A stretch of DNA of 33,371 nucleotides from Fibrobacteria bacterium (GTDB lineage Bacteria; Fibrobacterota; Chitinivibrionia; Chitinivibrionales; FEN-1185). The stretch covers positions 1 through 33,371 of the forward strand of contig JBBIGR010000049.1 of assembly GCA_037447435.1 (NCBI GenBank), written 5' to 3'. A model generated the notes under the pieces. That model searched no databases. It was not told the origin of the DNA and was given only the letters and a program-made list of their open reading frames with translations. A program made the position numbers and the translations under genes. This document shows positions 8,439 to 18,159 of this stretch, piece after piece; positions within the stretch are counted from its first letter, which is position 1; the number at the start of each line of letters is the position of its first letter.

Positions 8439-10757
8439 ATGAAAAAAGAAATAGTGCTCAATGCTGTAGCAATAGGCCTTCTTGTTTCGTTTACAGTGCT
8501 GGCTCAAAGTAGTCCCAATTATGTACGTACTACTACTTATTTGGATGAAAGTACACCTATCGTTTCAACTACGTTTTCTGATGGTCTTGGTAAGAAAATC
8601 CAATCACAGGTAATAATAAACGGCGCACCATTGAGCATAGATTTGATTTCGGGTAATTATTTTGACCCAGCTGGACGGCCATGGAGGACCGTGAAAGCTT
8701 TTTCGACGACTGAAGCGTTTCATGATTATTTACCCGACGGTGGGGTGGGGAACAGCCTCATTGATAAAGCAAATCTGTATTTCAACAATGATAGCGCATT
8801 TTCTGAAACGCAGTATTATGATGATCCTTTGGAAAGAGTTAAAGCTGTAGGTCAACCGGGAAAAGATTTTAATTTGGCAAACCCTGCAAAACATTTTCAA
8901 AAATCATGGTACTTTGGTGTAAAGTTGAGCCCGAATAGCTCTGAAGATCCAAACGCACTCCTTGACACGTCCTGCTTTATCAAGACTAGTGAGTTGATCA
9001 AATCTACAGTCGAAGCTACCCTTGACGCACCGGGTTTCAACATGACAAATGCGGTTTATTTTCTCACCGTTAATCGAGACCCGAACGGAAAATTTTCACA
9101 GGAATTGAAGGACATTTTTGGCAATACCTTCAAAACATGGTCTACACCGGATATCACTTCTGCCAGTCAACAAATCAAGGCCTCGTATATATTTGACATT
9201 GTTGGAAAATTGAATAAGGAAACGCAGCCGGTTCCGGACTTAACGGATCCTGGTAACGTGCTGCTGCCTTCTCAATACACCTATAATACCCTTGGTCAAC
9301 TATCCAGTAAAATTACTCCAGATGCCGGAACTACTTCATTTCGCTATGATGATGCGGGTCGGATACTGTTTTCGCAAAACCAAAAACAAAAGGATTTTTC
9401 CACAACATCCTTATGCTCATCTTTGGGTTCCAATGGACTTGAAGTTTTCACCATATACTCATATGACAACCTTGGGCGAACATTGACAATAGGCGAAAAC
9501 AATAACGATTCACTTAAGTTTCTATCCGGCGTTATTCCACAGCCAGTTCCAGCCGGACTCATAAGAGTTGAAAATCATTACGATAGTGCCAATGGATTAT
9601 TGCCACTTAAGAATGGCGTTTCCTATGGCACAATAATCGACTCGATCATTCCTTTGCTAAGCAACCTTAGGGGGCGTCTTGTTTTTACGGTTGCCTACAA
9701 TGACACTGCATGCCCTTGCAGTGGTGGAATAACATATGATCCAACGACGAAGGTGGTCGATATTTTCTCTTACGATGATGAAGGAAGGATAAATAAAAAG
9801 TTCAAAATTATTCCTGGTTTGCCGGTTCAGGCGTTCACCTTTACCTATAATCTTCAAGGAAAAGTGGTATCGCAAAAGTACTTTGCGGCCTTTGCCGGCA
9901 CTTTAGGGGGCGCAACATCTGTGACCACGTTCTCATATGATTCCAACGGTCGTCTTGCATCCATAAATAAAGGGAGTGAGTTCTCTGTACGTCCCTATGT
10001 CACTTATTCATATAGCCAGACGAACCTGCTTACTAAAAGGACTTTTGCAAGATCAGGTGTAGACCAGAATTTTGATTTGAATTACAGCTATAACATTCGA
10101 GATTGGGTTAACAAGATTTTTAATATCTCTGATTCAACAATTCCTCAATACTCGGAAAAACTTGCCTACAATGACGCAAGCAGCCTTATTAACTCCTCGC
10201 TTGTTTCAAGCCTTCAATACAATGGGAATATTGCTGCATCGGAATTTACTTATCCGACAACTGCGCCCCTTAAACCGCTCTCCCTGGCTTACACGTACGA
10301 TGACGTGAACAGGTTAACCAATGTTGTTACGGGCGCAACAGGAACGGTTGATTCGAATCTAAAACAGGATAAATTCAAGGAAGCGTTTTTATATGATAAT
10401 GTTGGAAGGTTGACCAAGAAAGTCGAGGGTGCTTCAGGAACTTCATCCACAGATCCAAAGTATTATTACTATCCGCAAAGTAGCAAATTGAGAGGGATTA
10501 AAGGTAATGAATGGATCGAAGACAGTTATGTATACGATGGAAATGGAAATATGATCCTGGACAAGAACAAGAAAATGTACATAACATATGACTGGCGGGA
10601 CATGCCGGAGTATTTCAAGTTTTTGAACCAAAATCCTGAACAGAGAAGCGATACGCTTGATTTTAGCAAATGCAAGATGATTTCTGAAGTTCGAATGCAG
10701 TACGATGCAAGCGGAAACAGGGTGCTCAAAACCACTCAGGCTCCCCTTGCGCCTTGA
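8439..10757 (+). CDS. Secreted RHS/YD-repeat shell protein (DUF6443-like N-terminus) lacking the RHS-associated core
   Basis: Signal peptide MKKEIVLNAVAIGLLVSFTVLA-Q; NYVRTTTY...FSDGLGKKIQ; YD repeats YNTLGQL, YDDAGRI, YDNLGRT, YDDEGRI, YNIRDWV, YNGNI, YDDVNRL, YDGNGNM; ends YDASGNRVLKTTQAPLAP* with no DHLGS or DPxG. Confidence 0.9.
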   Translation: MKKEIVLNAVAIGLLVSFTVLAQSSPNYVRTTTYLDESTPIVSTTFSDGLGKKIQSQVIINGAPLSIDLISGNYFDPAGRPWRTVKAFSTTEAFHDYLPDGGVGNSLIDKANLYFNNDSAFSETQYYDDPLERVKAVGQPGKDFNLANPAKHFQKSWYFGVKLSPNSSEDPNALLDTSCFIKTSELIKSTVEATLDAPGFNMTNAVYFLTVNRDPNGKFSQELKDIFGNTFKTWSTPDITSASQQIKASYIFDIVGKLNKETQPVPDLTDPGNVLLPSQYTYNTLGQLSSKITPDAGTTSFRYDDAGRILFSQNQKQKDFSTTSLCSSLGSNGLEVFTIYSYDNLGRTLTIGENNNDSLKFLSGVIPQPVPAGLIRVENHYDSANGLLPLKNGVSYGTIIDSIIPLLSNLRGRLVFTVAYNDTACPCSGGITYDPTTKVVDIFSYDDEGRINKKFKIIPGLPVQAFTFTYNLQGKVVSQKYFAAFAGTLGGATSVTTFSYDSNGRLASINKGSEFSVRPYVTYSYSQTNLLTKRTFARSGVDQNFDLNYSYNIRDWVNKIFNISDSTIPQYSEKLAYNDASSLINSSLVSSLQYNGNIAASEFTYPTTAPLKPLSLAYTYDDVNRLTNVVTGATGTVDSNLKQDKFKEAFLYDNVGRLTKKVEGASGTSSTDPKYYYYPQSSKLRGIKGNEWIEDSYVYDGNGNMILDKNKKMYITYDWRDMPEYFKFLNQNPEQRSDTLDFSKCKMISEVRMQYDASGNRVLKTTQAPLAP

Positions 10758-18159: not shown

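Follow-up and report, generated by a model that had tools for sequence, protein, structure and literature searches.

Background

The closest described relatives of the locus reported here are the Tc toxin complexes and the Rhs polymorphic toxins. In the Rhs and Tc structures covered by the accessible parts of the literature, wall, autoprotease plug and toxin are carried on one chain, and self-cleavage at DPxG is known for both groups (PMC8765631, accessible part). Split TcA genes and two-chain BC shells have been described, and the accessible text of PMC11435725 mentions no split TcC. Intact Rhs proteins of the DUF6443 type are relatives of the class that Zhang et al. 2012 named 'TcdB/TcaC' (PMC3482391, in the part available). 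The mosquito protein SGS1 is described in the available portion of PMC9935623 as a Tc-like shell with surface receptor domains and a hydrophobic cargo. Rhs toxins are also mentioned in C. alkaliphilum (PMC4814513, partial text). Note that the supplements of PMC3482391 and PMC7861908 list many architectures and could include loci of the kind analysed here.

A literature search, to which subscription papers were mostly inaccessible, found neither DUF6443 as a word nor a description of an Rhs protein split at the boundary between wall and core. Within the same scope, this agrees with an initial annotation of the sequence, which had known of no described system with such a layout. The arrangement reported here, a three-chain shell with an armed plug-toxin subunit, is thus apparently undescribed.

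Source and layout of the locus

The window, that is, the whole stretch of DNA that was analysed, is 33,371 nt long and comprises positions 1 to 33,371 of the forward strand of contig JBBIGR010000049.1, assembly GCA_037447435.1, from a Fibrobacteria bacterium (GTDB lineage Bacteria; Fibrobacterota; Chitinivibrionia; Chitinivibrionales; FEN-1185). The completeness of the genome is 99.6%, and the queries used detect A, the core and D once each in it. The features of the locus are listed in Table 1. Signal peptides were assigned by a hydropathy heuristic and by eye rather than by a trained predictor.

Table 1. Features of the locus (positions in the window)
Feature	Position	Strand	Basis
Gene A, DUF6443 + RHS/YD shell wall, signal-like N-terminus, 772 aa from ATG	8439..10757	+	Pfam, fold model
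A/B spacer, 49 nt; second stop TAA immediately after A stop; purine-rich RBS-like stretch before ATG	10758..10806	+	
Gene B, 2450 aa, likely start ATG 10807 (MISAKLSLWFVVGFSILGLF...)	10807..18159	+	unbroken frame, purine-rich stretch upstream
B signal-like peptide, ~25 aa	10807..10881	+	hydropathy 1.83 over residues 2-20, heuristic
B arm, two DUF2341 + LamG_3 (concanavalin-like) modules	10882..13041	+	Pfam
B arm, ~315-aa segment without Pfam match	13042..13986	+	
B arm, two more DUF2341 + LamG_3 modules	13987..16056	+	Pfam
B pre-core domain, ~220 aa, no Pfam match	16057..16719	+	
B RHS core: last wall strands, inward plug, aspartyl autoprotease	16720..17607	+	profile, alignment, A-B model
B C-terminal toxin tip, 183 aa, 17% Gly, mildly hydrophobic	17608..18159	+	putative toxin
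Putative immunity gene, 151 aa, two predicted membrane helices, overlaps B stop	18156..18611	+	position
OmpH/Skp-like protein, N-terminal hydrophobic anchor	18612..19172	+	
Predicted lipoprotein, 209 aa, no known family	19197..19826	+	
Gene D, 2108 aa, signal-like start, CBM4/9-like insert, C-terminal Ig-like domain	19829..26155	+	TcB-like by family model
GspE-type ATPase, possible export part	28897..30438	+	neighbourhood
Secretin (GspD-like), possible export part	30997..33282	+	neighbourhood

The initial annotation had read the first gene as a YD shell that stops at YDASGNRVLKT plus seven residues, and the second as a protein with its own signal-like N-terminus in which RHS sequence resumes at about 16747, after some 1980 residues of non-RHS modules. 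The sequence agrees with both descriptions, the signal being assigned by heuristic. The frame of A is unbroken, matches DUF6443 and RHS in Pfam, and ends with YDASGNRVLKT followed by TQAPLAP, i.e. 8 residues past YDASGNRVLK, before TGA TAA. In B, Pfam identifies four DUF2341 and four LamG_3 domains in an arm of about 1,950 residues. The landmarks of the core are TVGYVDG at residue 1981 (nt 16747), YYYLKDHLGSTRVV at 16888 and IDPDG at 17593. The core matches TIGR03696 above the cut-off, and a profile of it can be aligned to the part of TccC3 that forms the autoprotease, both aspartates included; the Asp codons are located at 17536 and 17596, and both residues are invariant in 21 of 21 aligned cores. 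The residue after DPDG is Asn in B, where the published consensus has W/L/F. An insertion of about 130 aa is present in the core between the KEFD and YFG motifs (window 17062-17454, + strand); it is common to 4 of 20 other aligned cores and marks a second insertion-tolerant site.

The locus thus combines a YD/RHS shell, a core with two Asp residues and PxxxxDPxG, and a variable tip with an adjacent immunity gene (by layout), which are the characteristics of Rhs polymorphic toxins. Wall, core and tip, which share one polypeptide in single-chain Rhs and TcC proteins, are divided here between A and B. B also differs from orphan tip modules, having a signal-like start, an arm of a kind that is under selection in relatives, and a whole core.

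Outside the core, the unassigned arm segment of about 315 aa (Table 1) has no homolog among the related loci compared. The pre-core domain is also found between shell and core of an intact single-chain protein (L022, from residue 741) and as stand-alone secreted genes; the nameless clusters, DUF6645 and PelX_N returned by the atlas search with this domain serve as leads only. Binding to target surfaces is the most likely role of the arm, a judgement that we hold at even confidence. The tip matches no family in NCBIfam or Pfam, its atlas matches had low recognition, and a homolog of it is an orphan tip in another genome (G020). The tip is Gly-rich and mildly hydrophobic and the neighbouring protein has two membrane helices, which would fit an antibacterial toxin that acts on membranes.

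Each B examined has a small gene after it; the one in the window, the putative immunity gene, has no family match. The OmpH-like gene recurs beside related loci (L055, L029, L074, L208, L177 and fragments), and in three other genomes (L055, L029, L208) it is followed by the lipoprotein gene. Judging from this neighbourhood, these two proteins could equally well assist the system or be unrelated to it.

The surrounding DNA contains several further features. On the minus strand, window 3-6794 encodes a large serine recombinase, a 740-aa double-AAA ATPase and three genes without known family (135, 101 and 404 aa), a cluster that may be an integrated element beside the toxin locus. Window 7480-7644 (+) contains a sigma-70 consensus without a mismatch (TTGACA-17-TATAAT) together with an AGGGAG site, both upstream of a 28-codon frame (7558-7644) that is rich in Lys, Ala and Val and possibly encodes a tiny basic DNA-binding peptide. 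A scan of 7400-20000 for promoters and terminators gave counts near chance (39 vs 32 and 11 vs 10.5, respectively) and listed no terminator-like site in the A/B gap. Between D and the type II secretion (T2SS) genes, window 26201-28844 (+) encodes a 192-aa signal-bearing protein and a repeat protein of about 660 aa that matches beta-propellers weakly and whose tail looks Por-type on visual inspection; this gene pair is not conserved at related loci.

Continuity of the two halves

Each half was aligned separately to intact proteins. Of 41 intact proteins, 37 have the D of DHLG 46-87 residues after motif K (YDxxGxRxxK); the corresponding distance in the window is 8+52=60, within this range. The two halves are therefore sequential, as the initial annotation had claimed when proposing an alignment with intact proteins. 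The best colinear case is the single chain L022, whose residues 38-732 are matched by A and whose residues 741-1083 are matched by B, starting at its pre-core domain. The remaining 4 of the 41 intact proteins have 157-296 residues between motif K and DHLG, which corresponds to a domain inserted exactly there; domains of 100-240 residues are found at the break position in intact relatives. On these alignments, the split appears to have arisen at a turn that was already tolerant of inserted domains.

A check on coverage of the junctions had also been proposed. Logan contigs of the sequencing run X1 span both the A/B and the arm/core junctions with no differing letter and at an even depth of 7.3-7.9. 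X1 may be the source sample, so that these contigs argue against a mis-join but are not independent; an assembly chimera is set aside as far as this allows.

The frame of B opens 77 nt before the stop codon of A, in the +1 frame, and the window alone leaves a frameshift possible. The frame relationship was surveyed at 29 loci including the window, in 26 of which the next gene is B or a presumed B. Among these 26 loci, the offsets 0, +1 and +2 from A to B occur 7, 7 and 12 times, the frame of B opens only at or after the stop of A in 17 and overlaps it in 9, and in 25 the B or presumed B begins with a signal-like stretch (hydropathy heuristic). Moreover, four genes and about 15 kb separate A and B at one locus (G022:C77), and D is located between them at another (G244:C32). 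Frameshifting or readthrough as a conserved mechanism is rejected in view of the three offsets, the loci without overlap, the separated halves and the signal-like starts of B.

Conservation, history and selection

A search of genome contigs with a single protein found no homologs; an alignment-based search found them, with family labels from Chitinivibrionales and other Fibrobacterota. Among the non-self database homologs of A, 17 of 18 end 2-9 residues past the motif. A hand-picked set of 31 other split loci, from about 23 genomes (one labelled Bacteroidales) and 4 metagenome contigs, nearly all Fibrobacterota, has the identical break. A separate core-bearing gene is present in 22 of them, in 20 cases on the same contig, and the contig ends first in 8. 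The 32 best shell sequences (at least 400 bits) comprise 24 split forms, 6 fused forms and 2 cut by contig ends; relatives scoring below these are nearly all fused. No match to the system was found in five other genomes of the same genus, and its distribution is therefore patchy. A protein labelled Chitinispirillum alkaliphilum, a cultured species, is a shell-only form of A, and the layout is therefore testable in an isolate. A further shell-only protein of 1,696 aa (L120:1373-6463) has a long N-terminal extension and the same end point; a T2SS operon comes next, and the roughly 10 kb downstream contain no core gene.

The B chains of the split loci are diverse ahead of the core, which begins 85 to about 2,000 residues in. 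Their arm domains include LamG, PA14, fn3, LRR, DUF7305, NPCBM, beta-helix and short unassigned segments. Related genomes thus have the same split point with different N-terminal arms at the 31 other loci, the pattern for which the initial annotation had suggested looking. Its further idea, that the break serves to hang a large arm on the toxin subunit, was overstated: many split B chains have just about 85-160 residues ahead of the core, and some intact relatives have several hundred extra residues before DUF6443.

The history of the split was examined in a tree of 52 shell-region rows, computed by a quick search under LG+G4 with an outgroup of 8 distant rows; partial rows and the most distant ones were omitted. 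The fused forms occupy the outer branches, and 23 split and 4 fused rows form one group (SH-aLRT 89, not starred), with two split rows outside it. At least 4-5 state changes are required, compared with 17.6 for shuffled labels. From this grouping and the few changes, the split state is, on the sequence data, clustered but labile; a single split with re-fusions and repeated splits fit alike.

Selection was estimated as dN/dS by the Nei-Gojobori method, with one saturated pair (L076/L078). Over 4 pairs each, A gave values of 0.15-0.21 and the B arms 0.12-0.16; one B core gave 0.19 and a fused control 0.17. In one pair, the tips are 19% identical and the cores 89% identical. The view that the break is not simple decay is borne out by the conservation at 31 loci and by dN/dS of 0.12-0.21; conservation of the break together with purifying selection on both halves excludes decay. 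Comparative sequence evidence thus indicates that the split is real, conserved and under selection.

Structure models of A, B and D

The fold model of A (pLDDT 70) matches TcdB2-TccC3 best (TM up to 0.58), followed by SGS1 (0.55); T6SS Rhs shells reach TM of only 0.14-0.23. A stops at the strand that precedes the inward-spiralling plug.

For the complex, residues 52-747 of the mature A chain were modelled with the B core, using our own alignments. The A-B model has an ipSAE of 0.87, compared with 0.00 for the best control; at least 87% of the contacts recur between runs, and the partner pLDDT is at least 63. Of 157 solved complexes, 116 reach the score mark, as do 2 of 215 mismatched pairs; these counts are a rough guide when own alignments are used. 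The tightest contacts are between the last strand of A (736-740) and the first of B (10-14); the core is placed on A over about 290 contacts, and its pLDDT is 30 after A is swapped for another chain. A two-part prediction had been proposed as a check, and B does dock its first strand on the last strand of A, with the reservation that the score may owe to likeness to solved Tc/Rhs shells. The model supports the geometry of the pair and not binding in the cell; with this in mind, we consider the interface very probably real. The suggestion that the shell is completed in trans by a separate signal-bearing chain is thus supported by conservation, selection and the complex model.

The initial annotation described a two-part system. 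The division between A and B stands, but the description was incomplete, having missed a third, TcB-like subunit, D (19829-26155), which is indicated by natural fusions and by the fold of its family. The fusions are single chains with D-like, A-like and core parts (L098:5348-13696 and L164:1228-7605). The family was modelled on a compact homolog (L183, pLDDT 64), 19% identical to D in the alignment, which matches TcdB1 and YenB first (TM ~0.38) and T6SS Rhs at 0.10-0.16. Sequence comparison of D with the PDB gave a CBM-like match only; profile A4 of D reached no TcB, and profile A5 reached YenB at just E 0.033. As to the beta-propeller gate of TcB, FG-GAP has no match in D and is present in 1 of 10 D-family members. 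Among the traits of the TcdB/TcaC class (signal peptide, SpvB domain and integrin-like propeller), SpvB is matched weakly in 1 of 10 members (E 0.017), with a fold match to the SpvB N-domain, and no propeller was seen. D-like genes are found in the DNA examined at 16 of the 31 other split loci, and many intact DUF6443 genes also have one as a neighbour. With good probability, then, D is a TcB-like shell subunit of the same particle as A and B, as far as a family model can indicate.

Export route

The T2SS genes in the window (Table 1) suggest a route, and exit through the adjacent T2SS is conceivable from the neighbourhood, at somewhat below even confidence. T2SS markers are present near only 4 of the 31 other split loci, two of them as single unverified motif matches. 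It is doubtful that an assembled cocoon passes through a secretin; the chains may therefore leave separately. No PAAR match was found in A, B or D, and, in place of the features of a T6SS Rhs effector, the chains have signal-like starts and TssC and VgrG are on other contigs. The genome elsewhere (G000:C1, C8, C12, C14) encodes TssC, VgrG, a SprA-like gene and two more secretins.

Proposed mechanism and alternative explanations

The reading that we consider probable is that the locus encodes a Sec-exported, three-chain RHS/YD cocoon of the Tc-BC type, composed of D, A and B, which acts as a polymorphic antibacterial toxin. D would be the lower, TcB-like chamber and A the upper wall, like the N-terminal part of a TcC-like chain; B would contribute the last wall strands and an inward plug with the autoprotease and the toxin tip. 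D, A and B would each be exported through Sec by their own signals and then assemble, with B capping the cocoon. The first core strand of B would pair with the last strand of A where intact relatives have a beta-hairpin turn, closing the spiral non-covalently. By analogy with Tc shells, the tip would lie inside and be cut off at the DPxG motif, and the portion of B N-terminal to the first core strand would remain outside as a variable arm.

Other compositions of the particle have to be weighed against this three-chain cocoon. A and B might form the particle alone, with D a separate secreted protein, given that A and the B core model well without D and that 15 of the 31 other split loci, often on short contigs, have no D in the DNA examined. 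However, A resembles in its fold the TcC part of Tc shells, for which a B-type partner is required according to the accessible text of PMC11435725; moreover, D-family genes are neighbours of DUF6443 genes of the split and the intact kind alike, and single chains with D, A and core exist. We regard the two-chain particle as unlikely. Even further down the scale is recoding of A and B into one chain, or a break that is a sequence error: the 77-nt overlap in the window and the similar overlaps at other loci would suit it, but it is hard to reconcile with the range of frame offsets, the prevalence of loci without overlap, the two loci with intervening genes and the signal-like starts of B, as well as with the letter-for-letter identity of the X1 contigs across the junctions. 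It is similarly improbable that B alone is an armed self-cleaving toxin, with A a conserved but functionally uncoupled neighbour. Some genomes do have core matches and no good A match, and at G067:C137 a complete B lies beside a shell remnant of only 79 aa, but the core-only cases inspected are for the most part orphan tips or fragments at contig edges, A is under purifying selection and keeps its exact end point, and the modelled core is the end of the spiral, placed on A and losing confidence when A is replaced.

As to function, the locus might encode an adhesin or a glycan-binding surface structure whose tip is not an antibacterial toxin. The tip in the window has no toxin-family match, DUF2341/LamG modules like those of the B arm are present on at least 12 other contigs of the source genome, and the arms of relatives carry PA14, fn3, LRR and beta-helix domains. 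Against this, tips are swapped while cores are conserved, a small gene follows each B, one relative has Ntox33, orphan core-plus-tip cassettes are common and both protease aspartates are invariant, so that we give this reading little credence; an antibacterial role is the likely one. Within the three-chain cocoon, D and A could be a generic, separately exported container and B an exchangeable unit of recognition, lid and toxin, so that one cell or lineage might fit various B chains into the same kind of shell. Hints of this are the variation of arms and tips over a fixed break, the 15 kb between B and A in G022:C77, and the genome G067, where the complete B at the shell remnant bears a signal and an intact A with another B is located elsewhere. 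Among 20 extra regions checked for many B per shell, nearly all are orphan tips, contig-edge pieces or the main B, with one complete stand-alone B, and the source genome has a single B; we rate this extension as rather doubtful.

Two further observations concern genes near related loci. Orphan core-tip cassettes adjoin recombinase-like gene pairs, downstream of or apart from B, at L054, L055 and L061. Upstream of A, genes with an LLKKIEE-type end, a putative tail-spike chaperone signature, are present at L029:1094-3028, L026:13303-17544, L028 and L031; two of these genes use the same DUF2341/LamG modules as the arm of B in the window.

Comparison with known systems

A natural, selected split between wall and plug would mean that the spiral can close non-covalently, and it offers a test of how cargo enters cocoons, namely by loading and then capping. 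It also points to a TcA-less, T6SS-independent way of aiming an encapsulated toxin, and connects the unstudied DUF6443 family to a TcB-like partner.

The locus is most like the TcB-TcC cocoon (TcdB2-TccC3 and YenB-YenC2; PDB 4o9x, 6h6e, 4igl), with A resembling the TcC part and D, by family, TcB. In Tc shells, too, the shell is already divided between chains (accessible parts of PMC11435725 and PMC8765631). Unlike in Tc, the C component is cut again here, into wall and plug plus toxin, all chains have signal-like starts, and the plug chain carries an arm and is followed by an immunity-like gene. The TcA domains PF18276 and PF20220 have no match in the genome but are silent in control genomes too, and none was recognised in the window.

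Intact Rhs proteins of the DUF6443 type that have a YD partner encoded upstream, at Bacteroidota-like and Fibrobacter loci, share the families, motif order, signals, immunity genes and D-like partner. These proteins are one chain with a short turn, whereas here the turn is replaced by a chain break, a new signal peptide and an arm. SGS1 (PDB 8fjp) is among the top fold matches for A and is the top sequence match for the B core. It differs in being a single eukaryotic chain of 3,364 residues, with no split and no immunity gene in the available description (PMC9935623).

The T6SS Rhs protein RhsA (PMC8765631) and the bacterial teneurin-like proteins (PMC13018210) likewise have a YD shell, core, variable tip and immunity gene in the accessible parts of these papers; unlike A and B, they are single chains; their fold matches A weakly, and RhsA carries a PAAR domain. 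Finally, the Streptomyces umbrella toxin particles (PMC11062931, partial text) are alike in outline, as secreted multi-subunit polymorphic toxins with lectin-type targeting modules, for which we claim no homology. In the text available, their toxin is not described in an RHS cocoon and their lectins are on separate spokes.
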